From a virus, in IMG/VR virus record IMGVR_UViG_3300045988_174467, positions 1 to 46,537 of that record: a DNA stretch of 46,537 nt; one strand, 5' to 3'. The notes under the pieces are model-generated. The model ran no database searches. It saw only the letters and a program-made list of their open reading frames with translations, and was not told where the DNA came from. Of this stretch, positions 334 to 46,537 are shown one piece after another (positions within the stretch are counted from its first letter, which is position 1; the number at the start of each line of letters is the position of its first letter). Both the position numbers and the translations under genes were made by a program.

Positions 334-411
334 TTTTTTTGGATTTCAATACTTTATCCGGAGCAGTCCGCCGCGAGGTTCGCTGCTCCATTTCTAAAAA
401 ACGAAACCTTA

Positions 412-1425: not shown

Positions 1426-4400
1426 ATGGCTGGCAAGCACCTTTCTGAAGACGAAATCAAGTATGTCATCTCTGCCGATTCTTCTAAGGCGCAGCAAGAG
1501 CTGCATAAACTCGGCAAATCCACTGCGGTTCTCCGGAGAGAGGAAAAAGCACGCCGTTCGGCGATGATCGAACTCGAGGCTTCCGGCAAAAAAAACTCGG
1601 ACCAATACCGGAAACTCCGGCAGGAGTGTAAGGACTATACGCGGCAGATTGCTGAAGCGGAGGAAAAAATGAAAAAAATGCGTGCGGCGCTCGATGTCAA
1701 TGCTATGACGATGAACCAGCTCCGTAAGTACGCTCGCGAACTTTCCAACGAACTCAACAATACGTCTAAAGCTGCTTCTCCAAAACAGTACGCCGAACTC
1801 GAGACGCGCCTGCAGGGAGTCAACATGCGTATCGAGGAGTTGCGCAGTGGAGCCGTCAGGTTGAAGCAGCACTTCTTCTCCATGGAGACTTTGAATGTTA
1901 TGGCGGGAAATTTAATGGCAAAATTCGCAGAGTTTATAGGGCATTCTTTGCGCAATCTGACGGGATTTTTGACCGAATCTATTCAGAAAAGTGTCGAGTT
2001 AGCAGAGTCGGCAGACGGTATCACTCACGCTTTTAATAAAATCGGCACGAAAGACTATCTTCAGACCCTGCGTGACGCTACGAAGGGGACGGTCAGTGAT
2101 ATAGAACTTATGAAGGCTGCTGTTAAAGCGAAAGATTTTCATATACCCCTGGAGGATCTCGGAAAATACCTTGCCTTTGCCCAGTTGAAAGCACAGCAGA
2201 CGGGACAGTCGCTCGATTATATGGTCGACTCTATTGTCTTGGGTCTCGGACGCGAGTCTCCGAAGATCCTCGACAATCTCGGACTCTCGGCCACTGAAAT
2301 CAAAGAGCAAACGAAAAAAACGGGCGATTTTATGAAAGGCGTGGCAAAAATCGTGGAGAATGAACTGGCCGAAGCGGGCGAAACGTATATCTCTGCTGCC
2401 GATAGGGCGGCGCAGCGAACAACCGAACTCGAAAACGCACAACGCGCGCTGGGCGAAGTGCTTTTACCCTTGAAGGAGGAGTTTGCGGATGTCTACGGGC
2501 AGATTCAGATTGGAGCCTTGCAGGCCGTCAAGTATCTTGTGCAGCATCGTGATGTCTTGTGGCAATTAAGCAAAGTGGTGGCGCTGCTTGTGGCCACTTA
2601 TATGTCCTATGCCGCGGCGCAGAAGCTGAGTTATGTGTGGAGTCTGCGAACTGTCGTAGTGAGCAAGCTCAAGGCCGCGGCTGCTGCCGTCGAAAATGCA
2701 ATGTTGGAGTTGTCTATCCTCCGACATGCTGTGCTTAATAAGACGATGAAAGCGTCCATAGCCCTGCAAAAGGCTTTCAATATCGTCCTCAAACTTTCCC
2801 CATGGGGCTTGGTGCTGGGGGCTATTACGCTCGTTGTGGGGGCGATGTTGCTCTTCCGTAAACGCACGGATGAAGCCACGGCCGCACAACGCAGAATTAG
2901 TCAAGTGGAAAAACAAGCAGCAGAGAGCGCAGCAGAAGAAACGGCAAAGCTGCGCACGCTCTATGAAGCTACGCAGGATCAGTCGCTGGCGATGGACAAG
3001 CGGCGAAAAATGGTAGAGCAGCTGAAGCAGCAGTATCCGGATTATTTCGGGAAACTCTCGACTGAAGCCATCCTTGCCGGAAAGGCGGCAGTACAGTATC
3101 GTTTGCTCACAGCCAATATCATGGCCGCGGCGAGAGCAAGAGCCTATCAAGATGAGATTACACGTTTGGCAAAGGAGAATCTTGAACATGAAAGAGGGAT
3201 CAATGCGGACCAAAACTGGAGTAACAGAAATAAGGGGGCTTATGACAAGGCGAGGAAAAAGCATACGGAGGAAAAAAACTATACGCGGCGTTCGGCGCTT
3301 GCCGGATTTGAAGAATCTGCTATTGAGGCACGAGGGGTGCAGGAGAATAAGAACCCCGTGATCCAAGAGTACGAAGATAGGCAACAGCGTCAGAGGGCAC
3401 ACCTCGAAGCTATTGATCGAAACAATAAGTCGATGGCCGCGTATGCGAAGATCATCGCACAAACTAATCCTCTTAAACCTTTAGTGGATGAGGATCCTAA
3501 GGACGACGATCCGAAAAAAAACGGAAAATCTTCTCCGGATCCGGACGATGTGGCTACAAAGCTGTTCGCGCATGATCGCAGTCGCGATTTGGAAGAAGAA
3601 AAGCAAGCATATACGGAAAGCCTGAACGCGTTAAAGTCGTCTTTAATCAAAAAGCAAATCACGCAAGAGCAGTACGATGTGAAGGCGACGGCCATTAATG
3701 TGAAGCACCAGGAAGCTTTGCTTGAAATTGAAAAATCCTATAGCGAGCGGGCTAAAAATACCACAATCAAAAATGCGGATAAAAAGAAGCAGCTGCTGGA
3801 GACGCAGGAAAAAGCCGTCATCGATCAGAAGCAGGCGGTCTATGAGGCTTATTTGGATATGGAGAAGCAATATTATGACAACCTCGACAAACTGAAAGCC
3901 ACAGCACCCACGCAGCCACAGACTTTGCAGGAGGAGTGCGAGGCCAAACTCTTGATCCTCGAGGGTTATTATCAAGCCTCCTTGCAGATGGCCGAGGATG
4001 ATGCTGAGCGGAAGCGGCAGACCACGGAAGCTTATGAGGCGGCAAAGGCGGCCATTGTGGCCGATTATGCAAAAAAAACGGAGGAGGAAAAAGCGCGCGC
4101 ACGGCAGGAGTATGGGTTGGATACCTTCACCGATCAGCTTGCGGCTCGTCGAAAGAAAATCGATGAGGAACTCGCGAAAGGCCTGCTTACGCAAGAGCAG
4201 CACGCGCAAGCTGTCGCGAATCTTGAGAAAGATGCGGAAGCTCATCGCTTGCAAATTCGCCAACAGTATGGATTGGCAAAACAGCAAGAACTCTATGATG
4301 CTGAACTTGATCTGCTCAAGCAGCATTTGGAAAAGAAGGAGATTTCTGAAGCGGAGTATGAGGAAGCGGTCAAAAACCTCAAGATAAACAAGATGAAAGA

Positions 4401-5295
4401 GGCTTTCGACTACTATGCGAACCTGTCCGGAGGAGCTGTGCAGGCCTTGCAAAAAGCGGAAGAAGCAAATGTCGATGCAAAGTATGATGCCGAGATCGAG
4501 GCGGCACGAAATGCCGGCAAGGATACGACTGAGTTGGAGAAAAAGAAAGCCAACGAAAAATTGAAGATTCAGAAAAAATATGCCGATGTCGACTTTGCCA
4601 TCAAAGCTTCACAGATCATTGCCGATACATCTGTCGCTATTATGAGAGCTTATAAAGATCTTCCATTACCGGCGGCTATCGCGGCTTCTGCTTTGATTGG
4701 TATAACCGGTGCAGCACAACTCGCAGCGGCCAATGCCGAACGTCAAAAAATAAAGAAGCTGACGCTCAATGGAGCTTCCGCCGGCGCTACCGGTGGAGCG
4801 CGGGTGGCCACCGGACTCGAGAAGGGTGGCAGTATCGATGTGGAGCGAGAACAAGACGGACGGCGTTTCCACGCAGCCTATGACCCGGACAGGCGGGGCT
4901 TTGTTGATAAACCGACCGTCATTGTGGGGGAAGGTGGGTATGGCCATAGTAAGGAATGGGTAGCCTCGAATGCTGCAGTGGAGAATCCCACGGTGGCACC
5001 GATCATCGACATCATAGATCGAGCACAGAGAGCCGGAACAATCCGCACCCTCGATATGAGCAAGTTTCTCCTGCAACAGGCGCAAGGACGTGCCGCGGGC
5101 GGACCCATTGCGCCGGCGTCTCCGGATCCGAGACCGATGCCGCAGAATTCGGAGAAAGATGTCATCCTCCTTCGTTTGATAAATGTGCTTGACCGTTTGG
5201 AGAGTGAGGGTATTCAGGCGGCTGTCGCCTTGGATGAGATTGATCGAAAGCAGCAGCTGCGAAACCGAGCACGTCAGTTTGGTAGTAAACAATAA
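1426..5295 (+). CDS. tail tape measure protein (1289 aa)
   Basis: The N-terminal third carries a tape-measure core-like segment (GITHAFNKIG...DIELMKAAVKAKDF...AFAQLKAQQTGQSLDYMVDSIVLGLGRESPKILDNLGLS). Central hydrophobic helices are followed by several hundred residues of K/E/Q/A coiled coil. It is the largest gene ahead of the distal tail genes. Confidence 0.9.
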   Translation: MAGKHLSEDEIKYVISADSSKAQQELHKLGKSTAVLRREEKARRSAMIELEASGKKNSDQYRKLRQECKDYTRQIAEAEEKMKKMRAALDVNAMTMNQLRKYARELSNELNNTSKAASPKQYAELETRLQGVNMRIEELRSGAVRLKQHFFSMETLNVMAGNLMAKFAEFIGHSLRNLTGFLTESIQKSVELAESADGITHAFNKIGTKDYLQTLRDATKGTVSDIELMKAAVKAKDFHIPLEDLGKYLAFAQLKAQQTGQSLDYMVDSIVLGLGRESPKILDNLGLSATEIKEQTKKTGDFMKGVAKIVENELAEAGETYISAADRAAQRTTELENAQRALGEVLLPLKEEFADVYGQIQIGALQAVKYLVQHRDVLWQLSKVVALLVATYMSYAAAQKLSYVWSLRTVVVSKLKAAAAAVENAMLELSILRHAVLNKTMKASIALQKAFNIVLKLSPWGLVLGAITLVVGAMLLFRKRTDEATAAQRRISQVEKQAAESAAEETAKLRTLYEATQDQSLAMDKRRKMVEQLKQQYPDYFGKLSTEAILAGKAAVQYRLLTANIMAAARARAYQDEITRLAKENLEHERGINADQNWSNRNKGAYDKARKKHTEEKNYTRRSALAGFEESAIEARGVQENKNPVIQEYEDRQQRQRAHLEAIDRNNKSMAAYAKIIAQTNPLKPLVDEDPKDDDPKKNGKSSPDPDDVATKLFAHDRSRDLEEEKQAYTESLNALKSSLIKKQITQEQYDVKATAINVKHQEALLEIEKSYSERAKNTTIKNADKKKQLLETQEKAVIDQKQAVYEAYLDMEKQYYDNLDKLKATAPTQPQTLQEECEAKLLILEGYYQASLQMAEDDAERKRQTTEAYEAAKAAIVADYAKKTEEEKARARQEYGLDTFTDQLAARRKKIDEELAKGLLTQEQHAQAVANLEKDAEAHRLQIRQQYGLAKQQELYDAELDLLKQHLEKKEISEAEYEEAVKNLKINKMKEAFDYYANLSGGAVQALQKAEEANVDAKYDAEIEAARNAGKDTTELEKKKANEKLKIQKKYADVDFAIKASQIIADTSVAIMRAYKDLPLPAAIAASALIGITGAAQLAAANAERQKIKKLTLNGASAGATGGARVATGLEKGGSIDVEREQDGRRFHAAYDPDRRGFVDKPTVIVGEGGYGHSKEWVASNAAVENPTVAPIIDIIDRAQRAGTIRTLDMSKFLLQQAQGRAAGGPIAPASPDPRPMPQNSEKDVILLRLINVLDRLESEGIQAAVALDEIDRKQQLRNRARQFGSKQ

Positions 5296-5301
5296 TGCAG
5301 T

Positions 5302-7431
5302 ATGAAAATTACCAATTTGGAAAAGGGCGAAGACTACAACCTGAAGCCCGATACACAGATTCAGGTAGAGCGAACGAATCCTTTCTTCAATGATTATGGA
5401 GAGCAGACGACACCGCTCGAACTTCCCACGTCGGAGCGCAACCGCCGACTGCTGGGATTTCCGGATACTTTTGGCCGACGCGTGAAAATGTCACCCGTCG
5501 AGGTCTCTATTCAGGATGGAGAGTATTTTGCGCAGTGCCGGCAGATCGTGCTGTCTGCGCAACACAATGGTAATCTTGCCACGGCCTTCTACATCAACGA
5601 CGGATCTTTCTATTCGCGCATTCAGAAGGTGAAACTGAAGGATATTTTTAAGGACGAGTGTGTGCCGGTTCCCCACTTGGAGGGCAATACGCCGGTGCAG
5701 GATTGCATAAACTTCTGTCGCAGCCTGCGCGCGAATACGAATGAGCAATACGGTATCTTCCCCGTCCTGCTTACGGATGATTCCGGAATAGAAGCCGGAC
5801 TTAATTTCAAAATGCTGAATGCCTATGGAAAGGAGAAGGTCTTGCAATCGAAAAAAATATGGGTGTGGAAAAGGGGACATTGGGTGCAAATTACGGTCGA
5901 TGCCGTTTCGGCCTTTCATCCGGACACTGAAGGTCGCGACTGCGATTTTTACAATGCGGTACAGCGGACGGAATATATAGGAAACATGCCGATCACCTTG
6001 TCGCCGGGCTATTACATCTCGCCATTCATCCGAGCCAATTATCTGCTCAAGCGGATCTTCGCATATTTTGGCTACGACTTGCAGGACAATTTCTTTACGA
6101 GAACGGAACCTTTCTCTAAAATGGTCGTCGTGAATAATGTGATGGACGCACTGGTGAATGGGCGTATCCGGATAGCCGACCTCGTGCCGGATATCTCTTG
6201 TGCGGATTTCATCGCTGTATTCCGCAAAAAGTTCTGTTGCGAGTTTACCTCTGATGAGGGCGAACGTACGGCCGATGTGATCTTTCTGCGCGACGTCTTG
6301 GCAACGCGGCCGCTGGAAGATCTGACAACCTGTGTGACGGAAGAACCGACGATCGCTTACAAAGCGGAAAAAGATTACCAACGAATTGTGCTCTCATCGG
6401 AGGAAAAAGTCGATACGGAGATAGCTGACGCTTATGACGATTTGGACGCCTTGGTGAAAGCAAATCCGGGAGCTTACTTTAATCCGGCTGATGGGGCCTT
6501 TTACAAACAAGGCTTCTCCGGAAACTATGAGGTCATTACGAAGATTGGGGAAGCCTCGCAAGATTACAATACGGGGGAAAAACTCGAGGCAAAGGAAATT
6601 AAGGTGCCTGATTGCATGCCGGAGTTCCGCACACTTAAATACAATACGACGGTTGATGAGGAAAAAGTCGCTATTGATATCGGTGACTTCCTTTATATAG
6701 GGGCGTATATTTCGCTCAATTCTAAGATTATGGTGGCCGGGGAAGATAAGGAGGCTGTGTCGGAGTCGGCAAACAAGCAGAATGCGATCCTTGCCTTCAG
6801 CTATCTCTCTGCCGGTCGGCCGGAGGGTACCATCTCGTCTTACGATATGCACGATGCTGCACGTCCGCGTATTGCGGACTATGCACTCTACTATCACGGA
6901 CCGGATGGTATCTTCGAACGCTTCTATCGCGATTACGATTTGCTCTTGCGAAATGCGCTGCATGAGATGAAAGTCAAATTGTTGCTGTCGCAGTCGCAGA
7001 AACAAAATCTTTCTGCCTATGCGAAAGTGATCATCCGAGGGGTTGCTTTCTTCTTTGACAAATTGAAGTTTACGCTCGGTGGAAAAAATGAACCGGTAGA
7101 GTCGGAGCTACGCTCTATCGCGCTGATGGAACCCATCGTGGCGGCGCCGCTCGTGAATGAGCAGCTCAAGTTTATGAACGCAGCTTATAAATGGGTTGGT
7201 CGAGAGGTGCAAATAGAGGTGACTGAAAAAGAGTATCACAATGCCGGCTTGGATAAAGATCGGACATTTACAACCATTTATCCGCCGGTGCCGAGTCAAC
7301 AATATGAGTGGAAACCCTATGGAAGACAGGTTTCTTTTACGGCACAGAAAATTCGGGAGGGTTCGTTCTGGCATCATTCGAAGTGGTTGCATACGCGCAC
7401 GGAGGTGTGGCTGGAATGCGTGCCCAAGTAG
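5302..7431 (+). CDS. tail protein (709 aa), distal-tail position
   Basis: The assignment is positional, as the first gene after the tape measure. No motif recognised. Confidence 0.5.
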   Translation: MKITNLEKGEDYNLKPDTQIQVERTNPFFNDYGEQTTPLELPTSERNRRLLGFPDTFGRRVKMSPVEVSIQDGEYFAQCRQIVLSAQHNGNLATAFYINDGSFYSRIQKVKLKDIFKDECVPVPHLEGNTPVQDCINFCRSLRANTNEQYGIFPVLLTDDSGIEAGLNFKMLNAYGKEKVLQSKKIWVWKRGHWVQITVDAVSAFHPDTEGRDCDFYNAVQRTEYIGNMPITLSPGYYISPFIRANYLLKRIFAYFGYDLQDNFFTRTEPFSKMVVVNNVMDALVNGRIRIADLVPDISCADFIAVFRKKFCCEFTSDEGERTADVIFLRDVLATRPLEDLTTCVTEEPTIAYKAEKDYQRIVLSSEEKVDTEIADAYDDLDALVKANPGAYFNPADGAFYKQGFSGNYEVITKIGEASQDYNTGEKLEAKEIKVPDCMPEFRTLKYNTTVDEEKVAIDIGDFLYIGAYISLNSKIMVAGEDKEAVSESANKQNAILAFSYLSAGRPEGTISSYDMHDAARPRIADYALYYHGPDGIFERFYRDYDLLLRNALHEMKVKLLLSQSQKQNLSAYAKVIIRGVAFFFDKLKFTLGGKNEPVESELRSIALMEPIVAAPLVNEQLKFMNAAYKWVGREVQIEVTEKEYHNAGLDKDRTFTTIYPPVPSQQYEWKPYGRQVSFTAQKIREGSFWHHSKWLHTRTEVWLECVPK

Positions 7432-19171: not shown

Positions 19172-20362
19172 TTACAGCACGCCCTTGTAATTTAGAAGCA
19201 GCTCATTTGCCTCCTTGATATCTTTTGGCGTATAAATATCTGTTATCAGAATAGAGGAGTGTCGAGCCTGATCTCTTACGCTGATAATATCTGTGTTTGA
19301 GCGTATCATATTGGTAATCCCGGTATCTTTCAGACTATAAAATTTATAGCGTGCTGTCATTTTTAAATTCTTGCGGACGTGATGATGCCAATAATCACGG
19401 AACGATTTCTCGCTTCGCCGCTCTGCTCCCGGTGCAAAATCCTTACCGAACAGATAGTAATTACTCGGGTTATCGAATATGCGTAAGTCTATCATCAGTT
19501 TGAGTACGTGATCCGGGATTGTCAGGAGCGCATCGTTATGATTTTTAGTATTTGCTCCGTGTAGAAACAATGTTTTCTTCCTGATGTTGAAATCGCCGAT
19601 CTTCAGATAGCTCATTTCCTTGGGGCGAACGAAGAGATAGTGTAGCATATAGCAGGCCAATAAGTAATGTTTGTGGTGCACCATCAGCCATTGTTTGAGG
19701 TCCGCCAACACATCATCCGGTATGACGTCTCTGTTCTTCAGCTGTCCCCTACGTTGTGCGATAGAATAACTCGCCGTCGGGTCTGTAGATATATATCCTC
19801 GCTCGAGCAAGTATTTGCAGAAGATTTTGAGCCAGGCCAAGTAATTGTTTCGTGTGCAGATCGTATTGTTTCTATCCACAAAAACGTAATCCAGGAACTG
19901 TCCTACCATGCGATTATCAAACTGGTACGTGTAGAAGAGATTGATTTTCTTCGATGCTTTCCATTCCTTCAGAATCTTGATCCTGCTCAGATAAGCGACG
20001 ACCGACTCTTCTCGTATGTTGTTCTCTCTTAACAATTTGAGAAGGTATTCCTCATATTTTCTACACACATCATCAAAAGACGAGTATTCTAACGGTTGTA
20101 CGATTTCTATCCACGGATTCCAGCCTTGTATCAGTTTTTCCGTAAGTCGTTTGATGAGTGCATCCCCATAGTGTTGTTGATTGCGTTTCCCCTTAATATG
20201 CCCGAGCATAAACTTTTTTGTACGAAACTTACCCCTTTCAGGGTCGAATGCTGAAAGAGACACATAACATTCCGATGCTTGGTGAAACTTCGGAGTTTTC
20301 CAGCCAACGATTGCATCAATCGCCTGCTGTTTTTTTGAAGATGGAAATTTTTTTTTTGGCAT
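19172..20362 (-). CDS. int: tyrosine site-specific integrase (396 aa), Bacteroidetes type
   Basis: Catalytic-domain signatures: LFVRPKEMSYLKIGDF (Arg), YSLKDTGITNM and ARHSSILITDIYT (His and the Tyr nucleophile). N-terminal arm-binding and SAM-like region. Confidence 0.9.
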   Translation of the reverse strand: MPKKKFPSSKKQQAIDAIVGWKTPKFHQASECYVSLSAFDPERGKFRTKKFMLGHIKGKRNQQHYGDALIKRLTEKLIQGWNPWIEIVQPLEYSSFDDVCRKYEEYLLKLLRENNIREESVVAYLSRIKILKEWKASKKINLFYTYQFDNRMVGQFLDYVFVDRNNTICTRNNYLAWLKIFCKYLLERGYISTDPTASYSIAQRRGQLKNRDVIPDDVLADLKQWLMVHHKHYLLACYMLHYLFVRPKEMSYLKIGDFNIRKKTLFLHGANTKNHNDALLTIPDHVLKLMIDLRIFDNPSNYYLFGKDFAPGAERRSEKSFRDYWHHHVRKNLKMTARYKFYSLKDTGITNMIRSNTDIISVRDQARHSSILITDIYTPKDIKEANELLLNYKGVL

Positions 20363-20714: not shown

Positions 20715-20999
20715 TTACCCTGCATTCGTTGCTTTTTTAGAATGGTCTTTCGATTCTCTTTGCACGAGAAGGAATGTTAATCTATCTATTGTTTCTTGTT
20801 GTTTCTCTATTGTCTTCTGTTGGGTCGCTATGACAGAATATAGCTTTTCTTTATCGCTCTCATTATAATTCTTCTTCCCCATTATTAGCCAATTTGCTTC
20901 AACCCAGTCAAAACTCTCTATGATTTTGACTATTACATCGTAACCAGGTTTGTTTCGACCAATTGTGATGTTTCTGATTGTTTGATCACGGACGTTCAT
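20715..20999 (-). CDS. XRE/cI-like repressor, apparently 5'-truncated by a frameshift (94 aa as called)
   Basis: The ORF starts inside an HTH (MNVRDQTIRNITIGRNKPGYDVIVKIIESF..ANWLIMGKK) and continues into a coiled-coil C-terminus. The missing first helices are encoded upstream in another frame. Confidence 0.6.
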   Translation of the reverse strand: MNVRDQTIRNITIGRNKPGYDVIVKIIESFDWVEANWLIMGKKNYNESDKEKLYSVIATQQKTIEKQQETIDRLTFLLVQRESKDHSKKATNAG

Positions 21000-41727: not shown

Positions 41728-42168
41728 ATGAAAAAGTTTCCAATGATATCAGTTGTTTCGTTGCCACTCTCCATTGTGGTCGATTTCTCTCGTTTCCTCT
41801 TTCAAGATTGGGAATTTGCCAAGTGGATTGCCGGCGCCGTCATCCTCGATACCGTGCTTGGCCTCGTGAAGCACCTTATGCTCAAGGATGCTTCAAGTGG
41901 CTCTTTATTTGGTAAGTTCGGAAAAAAGATCGGCATCTACATCGTGCTGCTCATTCTCTCTAATATCCTTACCAACTACACCGTACAAGGTAATATCGTC
42001 GGCGCCACGCAGTGGATTGGCTCCTACCTCTGCGTCTTCATGATGGTGCGCGAGGGCTTCTCCTGTGTCGAAAATATCCAAGCTATTTATCCAATTTTTC
42101 CAACATCCTTCGTCCGCCGTCTCAAAGATTTTAATGATAGCGGCGAATACATCAAAAAAGATGAATGA
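41728..42168 (+). CDS. holin-like membrane protein (146 aa)
   Basis: Several TM helices (WIAGAVILDTVLGLV, IGIYIVLLILSNIL, IGSYLCVFMMV) and an ...REGFSCVENI segment, as in holin family 4. Overlaps the endolysin start. Confidence 0.6.
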   Translation: MKKFPMISVVSLPLSIVVDFSRFLFQDWEFAKWIAGAVILDTVLGLVKHLMLKDASSGSLFGKFGKKIGIYIVLLILSNILTNYTVQGNIVGATQWIGSYLCVFMMVREGFSCVENIQAIYPIFPTSFVRRLKDFNDSGEYIKKDE

Positions 42169-42689
42169 TTATGGCTACAGAACAGCAGCGTGCCTTCGCA
42201 CGCAATATCTATGCAGCAGCCCTTCAGGCTACTGACATTGCGCCCGAGTTCGTTACCGCCCAAGCTATCCTCGAAAGCGGCTGGGGAAAGTCTCGAGTGG
42301 GCAGGTTTAACCTCTTCGGCATTACCAAGGGAAGTAATTGGACGGGAAAAACCGTCTTGATCAAGACCCACGAGTATTTCAATACCCCCTCGCGTACCTT
42401 TGCTGCTCCCGAGCGCGTTGTGTCGGTCACTAAATGCAAAACACCCGGCCGATGGTACTACGTAGTCTACCGACTTTTCAAAGATTTCGATTCCCTGGCC
42501 GACTGCCTCAAAGAGCATTCCCGCCTCCTGCAAAAACCCGGCTTTGCCGATGCCTGGCCTTACCGGAAAGATGCCGAAGAGTTCGCCCGTCAAATCTGCG
42601 ACAACCGAGGGAGTCGCTACGCCACCTCACCCGATTATCTCACCACGATGCTCGCGCTTATCAAGACCGTACGTGCCATCTGTAAGTAA
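42165..42689 (+). CDS. endolysin, GH73-type N-acetylglucosaminidase (174 aa)
   Basis: AQAILESGWGKS...NLFGI is the glucosaminidase (mannosyl-glycoprotein endo-beta-N-acetylglucosaminidase) signature, including the catalytic Glu context. Confidence 0.8.
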   Translation: MIMATEQQRAFARNIYAAALQATDIAPEFVTAQAILESGWGKSRVGRFNLFGITKGSNWTGKTVLIKTHEYFNTPSRTFAAPERVVSVTKCKTPGRWYYVVYRLFKDFDSLADCLKEHSRLLQKPGFADAWPYRKDAEEFARQICDNRGSRYATSPDYLTTMLALIKTVRAICK

Positions 42690-43306
42690 TGCTGCCTATG
42701 TTTTCTTCAATCAAGCGAAGCTGGAATCTCTTTTCGCTGTTGCTGATGCTCCTTTTTGCCGCATTGGCGCTGCTCGCCTTCCGAGCTTATCGCAATATGA
42801 AAGCCGATCGTGACCGGCTGAAGCAGAATCAAACGCAACTCCTGAATAATGGCGCAGCCGACATTACAGAGATGCCCAATGGGCGTAGCCGCGCATCTGT
42901 CGCATCGTTGACGCTTCGCCCGGACGAGTTTCGACGCAGTGCCGATTCCTTGGTTAAAATAGCTCGCCAAGTAGGCATTCGTCCCTCTCGCATCTCCGAA
43001 GCGTCCACCGCGGCCACGTCTATGCAGACGACCATTGAAACGCCCATATATCGCTCCTCCGCTGTGCCGGATAGTAGTGTGTGTCTTTCGTGGAGCGATC
43101 CTTGGGTGTCTCTTTCCGGCTGCGTGACCGATTCGCTCTTTCGAGGCAGCGTATCCACTACCGATACGCTCGACATCATCGTCCATCGCGTCCCGAAGCG
43201 CTTCCTTTTCTTTCGCTTCGGCTGTCGTGAAGTTCGTATGGACATCATTTCCCGCAACCCACATACTCGGCTTACCTATGCACGATATTACAAGTTGGTG
43301 AAGTGA
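42689..43306 (+). CDS. N-terminally anchored membrane protein (205 aa), spanin-like by position
   Basis: TAATG overlap with the endolysin gene. Signal-anchor LFSLLLMLLFAALALLAF followed by a charged coiled segment. Confidence 0.5.
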   Translation: MLPMFSSIKRSWNLFSLLLMLLFAALALLAFRAYRNMKADRDRLKQNQTQLLNNGAADITEMPNGRSRASVASLTLRPDEFRRSADSLVKIARQVGIRPSRISEASTAATSMQTTIETPIYRSSAVPDSSVCLSWSDPWVSLSGCVTDSLFRGSVSTTDTLDIIVHRVPKRFLFFRFGCREVRMDIISRNPHTRLTYARYYKLVK

Positions 43307-44901: not shown

Positions 44902-45357
44902 ATGAAACAAAAAGAACCTTCATTTAAAAGTTGCTCTATGGGATGCTTAATGATGTTAATCATAGGCTTGATTTTCATTTTTGTAGTAAATATGTGCGAT
45001 AGCGATTCTAATACTATAAACTCAGATACTACAGAGCAAGTTGCAGAACAAGATCCTATGAAAACAAAGGCTATAACAATTGCTGAGCAAATAGTAAAAG
45101 TCAATCTGCATACTTCTTCAGATGTTGATTTCTCAAATGAAGAATTTTTTATTATGGGGGACAATGCCTATAATGTATCAGGGCATTACACAGTTGACGG
45201 AGTAGAACACAAGTTTGATTTGCGCCTACATTATAAAGGTGGAGAATGGACCTCCATCTCTAACTGGGAATGGAGTAGGTTGCAGTTAATGCGTGTTGGT
45301 GCAACAGATTTAGATGAAGATTTGCATGGAGCTTGGGCAACTGATATTTATCCGTAA
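44902..45357 (+). CDS. putative lipoprotein (151 aa) with an acidic post-Cys segment
   Basis: Signal peptide LMMLIIGLIFIFVVNM followed by C-DSDSN. Followed by a terminator. Confidence 0.55.
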   Translation: MKQKEPSFKSCSMGCLMMLIIGLIFIFVVNMCDSDSNTINSDTTEQVAEQDPMKTKAITIAEQIVKVNLHTSSDVDFSNEEFFIMGDNAYNVSGHYTVDGVEHKFDLRLHYKGGEWTSISNWEWSRLQLMRVGATDLDEDLHGAWATDIYP

Positions 45358-45367
45358 TTTTCATACC

Positions 45368-45394
45368 ACGCAAAAAATAATTGCGTTTTCTTTT
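45368..45394 (+). terminator. intrinsic terminator after the lipoprotein gene
   Basis: ACGCAA (45368-45373) pairs with TTGCGT (45381-45386), followed by TTTCTTTT. Confidence 0.6.
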
Positions 45395-45475
45395 GGCAGT
45401 TACAAAAATACTTTCCAAATTTGCAATTGTCAAACGTCGATGTAATGTTACATCATCAAGGGTGAGGTGAATGTC

Positions 45476-45514
45476 AAGCCCCGAACTTATTAAATTTCGA
45501 TGGGCTTATTTTTT
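45476..45514 (+). terminator. intrinsic terminator with no gene upstream
   Basis: AAGCCC-CGAA...TTCG-at-GGGCTT followed by ATTTTTT. Preceded by a TTTG(45392)-N20-CAAATTTG(45416-45423) promoter-like pair. Confidence 0.5.
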
Positions 45515-45548
45515 GCCCATATTGCAGCCTCGCTGCATTGTGATAACG

Positions 45549-45625
45549 GCGGATGCCTTCCCGTGAATTAGCCCTTGTGGTGTATTGCACGATGTTTGAC
45601 GACAGGAAGAGCATCCGCTCTTTTT
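45549..45625 (+). terminator. long bulged stem plus U-tract (terminator/attenuator candidate)
   Basis: GCGGATGCCTTCC (45549-45561) pairs with GGAAG-a-GCATCCGC (45605-45618), followed by TCTTTTT. The loop is 43 nt. Confidence 0.45.
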
Positions 45626-45670
45626 GTCTCCGCACCCGGCGGAACCGGGCAATGTCAAACATCGTGCAAT
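45584..45670. repeat. 17-bp perfect inverted repeat with a 53-nt spacer
   Basis: ATTGCACGATGTTTGAC (45584-45600) and GTCAAACATCGTGCAAT (45654-45670). The spacer contains the 3' arm and U-tract of the previous stem, plus a CCCGG/CCGGG hairpin (45635-45649). Confidence 0.85.
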
Positions 45671-45692
45671 TATGCAAACAACAACCTTCTGC

Positions 45693-45730
45693 GCCTGGCG
45701 GCGCTCGCGCTCGCTAACTGAAACGCGCAA
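45693..45730. repeat. 38-bp direct repeat, copy 1
   Basis: GCCTGGCGGCGCTCGCGCTCGCTAACTGAAACGCGCAA. Matches 45987-46024 at 37 of 38 positions. Confidence 0.9.
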
Positions 45731-45739
45731 TCTTTCTTC

Positions 45740-45747
45740 CAAAAATA
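45740..45747 (-). promoter_or_regulatory. minus-strand -7 box TATTTTTG pointing into repeat copy 1
   Basis: The reverse complement of caaaaata is TATTTTTG. The predicted start is a few nt before the antisense of 45730-45693. No good -33 box. Confidence 0.35.
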
Positions 45748-45779
45748 TTTGGAAATCTCAAATCTCTTCCTTATCTTTG
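45748..45779 (+). promoter_or_regulatory. canonical promoter TTTG-N20-TATCTTTG
   Basis: Exact -33 (45748-45751) and -7 (45772-45779) boxes with 20-nt spacing. Back-to-back with the minus-strand box. Confidence 0.55.
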
Positions 45780-45784
45780 CCGAG

Positions 45785-45835
45785 TCTAAATCATAAGAGC
45801 GGTACAGATGCCGCCGACTTGCGTCGGCCGTTTTT
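45785..45835 (+). ncRNA. candidate ~50-nt terminated leader transcript / small RNA
   Basis: Runs from the predicted start downstream of the 45772-45779 box to the terminator at 45813-45835. Confidence 0.3.
45813..45835 (+). terminator. intrinsic terminator in the leader upstream of the 45963 operon
   Basis: GCCGAC ttgc GTCGGC followed by cgTTTTT. Confidence 0.55.
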
Positions 45836-45962
45836 GTATCCGAATCTATCGGAAAATAATACAACTGCGCCGTGTCGGGTAATGGAAACATCCCGGAAGC
45901 CTCGCTTTTATGAGCTTAGACAACACGTAGCGCAGTTTCTTTTTTGTCTAAATCATAAAATT

Positions 45963-46247
45963 ATGGCAACTTTCCTTGTCAATCGTGCCTGGCGGCGCAC
46001 GCGCTCGCTAACTGAAACGCGCAACTCTCTCAACAACTGGCTCGATACTAAGAGCAGCTTCTACACCCGCCTCTGTGACCTTCCGGTTACCCGTCGTTTG
46101 GCCATTCGGCTTAATCTCCTATTTTTGTGCCTATTCCTCGCAGTCCTCTGCGTCGACCATCTGCCGATCATCGCAACTATCGCAGTCGCCTATGTCGTCT
46201 ATGGAGCTTTTCAGCTCAATAGGCAAACGAAAGGAGGTGAACAATGA
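45963..46247 (+). CDS. small membrane protein (94 aa): basic N-terminus, two C-terminal TM helices
   Basis: ATG 45963. TM helices LNLLFLCLFLAVLCV and LPIIATIAVAYVVYGAF. ATGA-coupled to the next gene. Codons 9-21 are repeat copy 2. Confidence 0.55.
   Translation: MATFLVNRAWRRTRSLTETRNSLNNWLDTKSSFYTRLCDLPVTRRLAIRLNLLFLCLFLAVLCVDHLPIIATIAVAYVVYGAFQLNRQTKGGEQ
45987..46024. repeat. 38-bp direct repeat, copy 2 (inside CDS 45963-46247)
   Basis: GCCTGGCGGCGCACGCGCTCGCTAACTGAAACGCGCAA. Confidence 0.9.
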
Positions 46248-46528
46248 AACGCACAGCATCAGCCCTTCGTTTCGTCTCGCAAGAGACCATAGCCGTACTC
46301 AATGAGATCGTTGGCGGCGGATATATCATCAACTATATCGCCACCTTGGAAGAAATCGAAAACAAAATCTTCTCCGATGCCAACGGCACCTTCGTCGAAG
46401 CTTCCGGCGAACCCTGTCCCGGCACCTTCGATATGTTGCGCACGATTCGTGCCCTCAAGGACGATTTGAGAACCCTCAATGTCCTATGCCCCGATGTGCA
46501 GACGGACAATCTCGAGGATGACGATTAA
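46244..46528 (+). CDS. hypothetical protein (94 aa)
   Basis: ATG overlaps the previous stop. Its 3' end lies in the terminal overlap and so continues at window position 1. Confidence 0.6.
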   Translation: MKRTASALRFVSQETIAVLNEIVGGGYIINYIATLEEIENKIFSDANGTFVEASGEPCPGTFDMLRTIRALKDDLRTLNVLCPDVQTDNLEDDD

Positions 46529-46537
46529 AAAAAACTA

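Follow-up and report, generated by a model that had tools for sequence, protein, structure and literature searches.

A likely stacked pair of c4-type antisense-RNA modules ahead of a three-gene cassette in a temperate phage

What controls the genes that follow the gene-poor segment at positions 45395-45960 of the viral DNA IMGVR_UViG_3300045988_174467? The window, as we use the term, is the whole stretch that was analysed, positions 1 to 46,537 of that IMG/VR record. A first-pass annotation, made from the letters alone, had read the segment as an RNA-based control region with two promoters and three stacked terminators, and had proposed, on the model of lambdoid PR'/tR'/6S and HK022 put, that an antitermination or attenuation mechanism may govern an operon leading into the tail genes. 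The broader of these claims stands, since short, structured, terminated RNAs are predicted to arise from promoters ahead of an operon. The antitermination mechanism does not, because its elements are accounted for one by one by two c4-type modules, on the basis of a c4-2 hit, loop/target complementarity, co-variation and a layout like that of phage P1 immI. We conclude that two c4-type antisense-RNA control modules, similar to immI of phages P1 and P7, are likely stacked in this region of a Bacteroidales temperate phage. The evidence that carries this conclusion is an RNA family match, structures, complementarity, co-variation, layout and an insertion that sets the window apart from close relatives.

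Judged from its sequence, 45392-45962 is laid out as two tandem modules, A and B, each with a predicted promoter, an upstream copy of a target site (T1), a leader hairpin with a U tract, a small RNA (sRNA) of ~80 nt, the target site itself (T2) and an ATG (Table 1). In module B, the sRNA matches the c4-2 family of Rfam, which shares its clan with the c4 antisense RNA of P1/P7, with 53.1 bits against a gathering score of 41, an E-value of 6e-9 over the whole window and an alignment covering model positions 1-79 of 79. All c4-2 consensus helices are present in the cmscan alignment (the outer helix, the inner helix, the GNRA-capped hairpin and the second loop region), and an independent minimum-energy fold yields the same helices (z = -2.8). 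Likewise, covariance model R2 gives this RNA 97.1 bits. On both sides of it we observed a perfect 13-nt direct repeat, GTCTAAATCATAA (45784-45796 and 45946-45958), which is complementary to its unpaired segment, UUUUAUGA-GC-UUAGAC. The predicted duplex of T2-B with the c4-2 RNA has 6 + 8 bp, and the pairing of T1-B is more extensive, its predicted duplex with the antisense segment (-24.2 kcal/mol) being stronger than that of T2. No other perfect copy of T2-B was found in the window. A terminator scan picked up 45813-45828 with the adjoining U tract, and leader B folds with z = -2.0. The c4-2 RNA and its own U tract (45863-45945) make a fourth hairpin with a U tract, one that the count of three had missed.

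The sRNA of module A belongs to a second class, which we call type A. Its fold (45549-45625) has a predicted energy of -32.4 kcal/mol (z = -4.8), and covariance model R1, which describes type A, gives it 80.9 bits. T2-A is complementary to the sRNA-A loop at 45584-45600 over 17 of 17 nt, and the site is unique in the window. T1-A, which lies just 3' of the first promoter at or near the predicted 5' end of the module A transcript, pairs with the loop over 11 bp, one G-U pair included. Predicting duplexes between whole sRNAs and the region was too noisy, and searches for exact complements and with the antisense segments were used instead. The whole of leader A is no more stable than shuffled sequences (z = -0.4), and the support for its hairpin comes from conservation in relatives. 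All three of the hairpins with U tracts that had been called terminators exist, but the one at 45549-45625 is the body of sRNA-A and not merely a terminator. Rfam yields no family match for sRNA-A, with nothing from the c4 clan at E <= 10 when 1 kb was scanned, and it detects no type-A sRNA among the R1-positive relatives; the sole resemblance to sok by score is at the level of chance (12.3 bits, E = 5.6).

The ATG that follows T2-A opens a 20-codon copy of the N-terminus of the downstream gene, in frame with it and free of stops through module B to 46247. The earlier statement that the segment holds no convincing protein gene is right as regards an independent gene, the remnant at ATG 45672 notwithstanding. 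In two relatives (L058 and L055) the start of the remnant sits directly on the full-length gene. These relatives, which are 97-99% identical to the window in the acidic protein of the second downstream gene, have module A only, followed directly by the full-length gene (MQTTTFRAWRRTRSLTETRNSLNNW...). Compared with them, the window has an extra 294 nt carrying the c4-2 module, placed exactly between two 38-nt repeats. Module B was inserted into an L058-like ancestor that had module A only. A diversity-generating retroelement, with a template and a variable repeat, was considered for the 38-nt repeat and rejected: its copies differ at 1 base, and comparison with L058 and L055 marks the repeat as an insertion scar.

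We then compared the modules across 72 loci reached via homologues of the 94-aa acidic protein, which shows 68-98% identity in relatives. In 62 of the 72, R1 detects a type-A sRNA ahead of the homologous small open reading frame (ORF), with scores of 48-89 bits. Pattern scans of IMG/VR add 72 and 28 R1 hits, so that type A is widespread there (>100 viral or metagenomic loci overall). In about 25 distinct type-A specificities, a stretch of 11-19 nt inside the sRNA is the perfect complement of a site that ends 1-6 nt before an ATG, and a near-copy of this target site lies 3' of the promoter. About 20 distinct further c4-2 RNAs, found in viral contigs by a pattern scan and R2, have a bipartite target before an ATG together with an upstream copy that pairs more strongly. 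Across these ~45 specificities, loop, T1 and T2 change jointly. In the type-A alignment, 96.7% of the cells of the scaffold helix are paired (38-55% in slid controls), and 7 of its 16 pairs show compensatory changes. Where T1 and T2 differ internally, all 7 of 7 differences are A-to-G or C-to-U and keep a G-U pair with the sRNA; this speaks for RNA pairing with RNA, on the + strand transcript, rather than for a DNA operator. Elsewhere, the genes downstream of c4-2 include a Bro-N+ANT antirepressor and an Rha regulator, a placement that recalls c4 in P1.

The window holds 6 copies of the strict Bacteroidota-type promoter motif, TTTG-N19-21-TAnnTTTG, where 0.54 would be expected. The promoter previously suggested at 45748-45779, that of module B, is one of these strict matches, and its motif also precedes the c4-2 module of L016 and L017. 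At the other suggested position, that of the module A promoter, there is indeed a site, but only a near-match to the strict motif; strict matches stand at that position in relatives.

Table 1. Features of the control region, of the cassette that follows it and of selected other genes of the window (nt, nucleotides; aa, amino acids)
Feature	Position	Strand	Remarks
Module A promoter-like site	45392-45423	+	TTTG-N20-CAAATTTG; near the Bacteroidota consensus
T1-A, upstream copy of sRNA-A target	45428-45441	+	TGTCAAACGTCGAT; repeats D13, I7
Leader A hairpin and U tract, terminator-like	45476-45514	+	Fold is a hairpin followed by AUUUUUU; conserved in type-A leaders of relatives
sRNA-A, c4-like type-A antisense RNA	45547-45627	+	Two helices (outer, inner) and a small hairpin; antisense segment at 45584-45600, U tract at 45621-45625
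T2-A, sRNA-A target	45654-45670	+	Inverted repeat I1; ends 1 nt before ATG 45672
N-terminal remnant ORF	45672-45731	+	MQTTTFCAWRRSRSLTETRN; 20 codons
38-nt direct repeat D1	45693-45730 and 45987-46024	+	Copies 97% identical; bounds the 294-nt inserted module B
Module B promoter	45748-45779	+	Strict TTTG-N20-TTATCTTTG
T1-B, upstream copy of c4-2 target	45784-45802	+	GTCTAAATCATAAGAGCGG; repeat D9
Leader B hairpin, intrinsic-terminator-like	45813-45835	+	GCCGAC-UUGC-GUCGGC, then CGUUUUU; conserved in c4-2 leaders of relatives
c4-2 RNA, 77 nt (Rfam RF02944, clan CL00128)	45863-45939	+	Antisense boxes a' 45906-45913 and b' 45916-45921; U tract to 45945
T2-B, bipartite c4-2 target	45946-45960	+	GTCTAA / A / TCATAAAA; repeat D9; ends 2 nt before ATG 45963
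First controlled gene, 94-aa protein	45963-46247	+	Basic N-terminus, hydrophobic C-terminal half; icd-like position
Second cassette gene, 94-aa acidic protein	46244-46528	+	ATGA overlap with stop of first gene; GGAGG upstream
Third cassette gene, 90 aa	61-333	+	Always adjoins second gene in relatives
Terminator-like hairpin closing the cassette	355-390	+	Aligned in L002, L005, L010 and the window; stem kept, stem sequences differ
Tape measure protein	1426-5295	+	
Integrase	19172-20362	-	
Holin	41728-42168		
Endolysin	42165-42689		

The arrangement in Table 1 closely resembles immI (c4-icd-ant) of phages P1 and P7. The annotated P1 immI consists of promoter P1c4, sites a1/b1, a 77-nt c4 RNA, sites a2/b2, icd (73 aa) and ant1, which overlaps icd by ATGA; the P1 system, including its polarity on downstream genes, has been summarised in the literature (PMC8201110, PMC8546580). 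The window has the same element order and spacing, antisense segments that are complementary to the translation-start sites of the first downstream ORF on the same strand, and a second copy of the target upstream (a1/b1 in P1; T1-A and T1-B here). As with icd and ant1, its 94-aa ORF overlaps the next gene by ATGA, at 46244-46247. Module B shares the bipartite target of P1 and P7, and specificity varies between the window's relatives as it does in P1/P7 heteroimmunity. Unlike P1 and P7, the window has a leader terminator between T1 and the sRNA, two differently keyed, stacked modules joined by an ORF, and controlled genes without homology to Icd or Ant; the host phylum differs as well, with promoters of the Bacteroidota type and a target that lacks a Shine-Dalgarno sequence. 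The window locus yielded no C1-type operator.

From these features we infer transcription, processing, action in trans and an immunity role for the cassette, which would proceed as follows. Each module transcript would begin with T1, pass the leader hairpin and the sRNA, and reach T2 at the ATG of the small ORF. The sRNA would be released by termination or processing, and its exposed antisense segment would pair with T2 and thereby block the initiation of translation. Because ATGA overlaps couple the downstream genes, these would be silenced as well, both by polarity, as in P1, and because their coupled translation would be lost. T1, which pairs as well as or better than T2, would together with the leader terminator probably serve as a decoy, in cis or in trans, that sets a threshold. 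Both sRNAs would hold the cassette silent in a lysogen, and an incoming phage with the same 'key' would have its own cassette shut down by them too. Premature termination may be part of this mechanism, given polarity as in P1 and the leader terminators, and attenuation could then add a second level of control.

The unit under control is a three-gene cassette and not the tail operon as such. Straight after the conserved hairpin that closes it, gene content diverges: tail genes come next in contigs of the L002 type, and in L005 and L010-L015 the next features are a convergent integrase, a tRNA gene and host DNA. Because relatives part in this way, the control region belongs to the cassette and not to the tail operon, and the idea that it governs an operon leading into the tail genes falls. 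The underlying view of genes running uninterrupted into the tail genes was correct in that all lie on the + strand of a circular window, but the hairpin closes the cassette before them. In the integrated relatives (L005, 4585-6143, and L010-L015) the integrase, the tRNA gene and host genes (EPSP synthase) adjoin the cassette, whereas the window has ~19 kb of tail genes between cassette and integrase; these relatives may be tail-less derivatives, satellites or phages with another genome order.

Several points weigh against reading the region as a pair of c4-type modules. The cassette proteins gave only a sub-threshold YlaH hit (first gene) against PHROGs, Pfam, NCBIfam and PADLOC, and no ANT, Bro-N or other domain. 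The promoters, the RNA ends and action in trans are deduced from the letters. Models R1 and R2 do not cross-detect and type A has no Rfam match, so that architecture and context are all that ties type A to c4. Many type-A sRNAs have no 3' U tract and would therefore need processing. Finally, sRNA and T2 lie 7-27 nt apart on one transcript, and pairing could thus be purely intramolecular.

As to what the cassette does, a module akin to type I toxin-antitoxin or abortive-infection systems would have the 94-aa membrane protein as a toxin held off by the sRNAs, with addiction or exclusion as its output. In favour of this, the first gene encodes a small protein whose C-terminal half is hydrophobic, the sRNAs pair at the translation start region of that gene, the P1 protein encoded at the corresponding place, Icd, inhibits cell division (PMC8201110), and morons occur in the neighbourhood, including HicA toxins in relatives. 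Nevertheless, the sRNA is co-oriented and co-transcribed with its target and not a convergent antisense RNA, translation of the first gene is coupled to that of two or three more, PADLOC gives no hit, and c4-2 relatives control Bro-N/ANT and Rha regulators. The comparison with hok/sok has the same two sides: there, too, an sRNA controls translation of a small membrane protein (in the window, by prediction), but in the window the sRNA is co-transcribed, its target is duplicated and an operon lies downstream. We regard a toxin output as unlikely; it shares its RNA mechanism with the c4-type reading and differs from it in output only.

The spacing of sRNA and T2 would also suit a purely cis-acting switch in the 5' untranslated region, in which the loop of an unreleased 'sRNA' pairs within the same molecule with T1 (on) or T2 (off). 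In line with this, the lowest-energy structure predicted for 45520-45680 has 45584-45600 paired in cis with 45654-45670, and many type-A sRNAs are without a terminator. Both sRNAs of the window, however, end in U tracts, P1 c4 acts in trans (PMC8546580), and the diversification of keys between related phages and their stacking are what trans-acting immunity predicts. A switch confined to cis is accordingly quite improbable in our judgement.

That a Q-like factor or a put-like RNA in cis lets polymerase read through the stacked terminators into a late (tail) operon is very improbable. The c4-type reading and the lambdoid PR'-6S RNA-tR'/Q and HK022 put systems have in common a short terminated RNA 3' of a promoter and ahead of late genes on the same strand, and in the window hairpins with U tracts do lie 3' of promoter-like sites, with all downstream genes on one strand through the tape measure gene. 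Yet every hairpin is explained as an sRNA or a conserved module leader, and antitermination has no role for the repeated and complementary sequences, which co-vary across dozens of loci. The bounded accessory cassette does not directly head the late structural operon, for the conserved hairpin closes it and integrase and host DNA follow in relatives instead of tail genes. The first-pass annotation had itself recognised no Q-like protein, and we likewise found none among the ORFs scanned, which cover part of those in the window; the neighbouring genes upstream encode a DUF2335 membrane protein, a lipoprotein, DUF5053, the holin and the endolysin. As for the repeated 13-17-nt sequences being DNA operators of a phage repressor, their three copies per module (two direct, one inverted) do change jointly between phages, but we give the idea next to no credence, as the inverted copy always lies within a conserved, co-varying RNA helix scaffold (in module B, that of an Rfam RNA family), T2 always abuts the ATG, and G-U-compatible transitions between T1 and T2 are meaningless for double-stranded DNA.

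The sar RNA of phage P22 is transcribed from the opposite strand across the start of ant, unlike the sRNAs of the window, which are co-oriented with their targets and lie upstream of them. Both are nevertheless small phage RNAs with an immunity-related target (proposed for the window), sar blocking translation initiation of the immunity-related gene ant (PMC12197685). The known kind to which the window's modules belong is c4 antisense-RNA immunity and the Rfam c4-2 motif. In the paper that introduced it, this motif (RF02944) is given as a likely distant homologue of an RNA described earlier (Weinberg et al. 2017, PMC5737381). As far as its description there goes, c4-2 is a predicted motif without described targets, whereas T1, T2, leader and controlled genes are defined in the window, where it also neighbours an sRNA of another class, type A, for which Rfam has no matching family. 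New, then, are the second sRNA class without Rfam match, the defined targets, the leader terminator and heterotypic stacking linked by an ORF. The c4-2 motif thereby gains concrete predicted targets, leaders and controlled genes, and gut Bacteroidales phages gain a second widespread class of c4-like sRNA that current RNA family libraries miss. The antisense-immunity design of P1 and P7 would extend to a phylum with different promoters and translation-initiation signals.

Stacked arrays of modules also occur elsewhere: L016 and L017 have at least 4 modules, L049 and L054 combine type A with c4-2, L230 has 3 type-A modules, and an unrelated group comprises L335 and L272. We examined 11 internal junctions in such arrays (1 in the window, 3 in L016, 1 each in L049, L054 and L272, and 2 each in L230 and L335). 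The truncated upstream ORF stays open through the whole of the next module, that is, promoter, T1, leader terminator, sRNA and T2, in 11 of 11, and ends by in-frame fusion with the next ATG in 5 and by a stop overlapping the next start (TAATG, ATGA or TAAATG) in 6. The other two frames always carry stops (8 of the 8 junctions for which all three frames were counted), and of 93 frames in first-position type-A modules only 4 are open for >80 codons. A caveat is L097, an unstacked c4-2 module of the same sub-lineage whose upstream frame is open as well, for 92 codons, and part of the pattern could thus be inherited and not selected.

This preserved frame leads us to a tentative proposal, which we hold possible but rather doubtful, that stacked and differently keyed modules form a translationally linked OR-gate. 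A ribosome starting at any unblocked module would ride through the downstream terminators and sRNA, and the cassette would be expressed. If so, a lysogen would need every key of such a phage in order to silence it, a stacked lysogen would silence every phage with any subset of its own, and RNA-based superinfection immunity would be subject to a modular, recombination-driven arms race. More generally, the many keys, their stacking and the always-preserved frame suggest that recombination diversifies and combines immunity specificities among human-gut Prevotella and Bacteroides phages.

Three contigs carry two separate, distant c4-2 RNAs, each with its own target and downstream gene: IMGVR_UViG_3300011989_000009 (L081 and L092), 3300045988_186183 (L094 and L095) and 3300032038_000146 (L080 and L096). 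Several c4-type circuits are therefore possible in one phage. L073 likewise has two c4-2 hits. On the reverse strand of L273, at 6208-6284, an 'orphan' c4-like sRNA without a remnant ORF stands upstream of a complete module and may be a key retained for trans immunity only.

A search of the rest of the window for further trans targets of the two sRNAs found none above chance. One candidate, within chance expectation, is GTCAAAATCATAG at 20918-20930 (-), a 2-mismatch relative of the c4-2 target in a small minus-strand ORF of the lysogeny region. Around T1-B, inspection by eye and by folding for an antiterminator/terminator alternative gave no convincing mutually exclusive structure. In type-A leaders, a GGGC-(U-rich)-GCCC element is conserved across the 3' arm of the leader terminator and its U tract (window 45505-45521; L016 669-685; also L056 and L049), and could form an alternative hairpin.

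Two further promoter motifs were observed near the modules. The first is a strict Bacteroidota motif, TTTGGCCATTCGGCTTAATCTCCTATTTTTG, within the membrane-protein ORF at 46097-46127 (+), which is kept in place in divergent relatives (L001 2462, L016 1312) despite differing protein sequence. It may be an internal promoter through which downstream cassette genes would escape sRNA control. The second is a strict motif on the minus strand, at 45434-45403 (-), which is also sigma-70-like, overlaps T1-A and is directed towards the lipoprotein gene; it could yield an RNA antisense to the terminator and 3' end of that gene.

At every gene junction of the cassette, in the window (46231-46247) as in L001, L016, L049, L055 and L272, a conserved AAGGAGG stands ~7 nt before the ATGA stop-start overlap; of 14 other AAGGAGG sites in the window, most lie inside long ORFs. 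Shine-Dalgarno sequences are rarely used in Bacteroidota. An AlphaFold2 model of the acidic protein is poor (pLDDT, the predicted local distance difference test score, 62), and alignment of this protein in GTDB genome representatives gave no match. For the 94-aa membrane protein, no relatives were confirmed in IMG/VR.

Bases 1-55 of the window repeat 46483-46537, a terminal overlap of 55 nt, and the window is a circularly assembled genome of ~46,482 bp. A comparison of 45300-46537 with 50,697 phage records by blastn (distant mode) found no match. The phage is temperate, because its gene set includes integrase, primase, DNA methyltransferase, tape measure, tail (with large tail proteins), holin and endolysin genes. 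Its host belongs to Bacteroidales and is probably Prevotella; the EPSP synthase gene beside a related prophage is 98% identical to a gene of an uncultured Prevotella sp. Accessory genes for DUF5053, the DUF2335 membrane protein and the lipoprotein lie between the lysis genes and the control region. The lysis genes themselves (holin, muramidase and DUF6549; 41728-43306) separate the head genes from the accessory, cassette and tail genes, which is an unusual order of modules.

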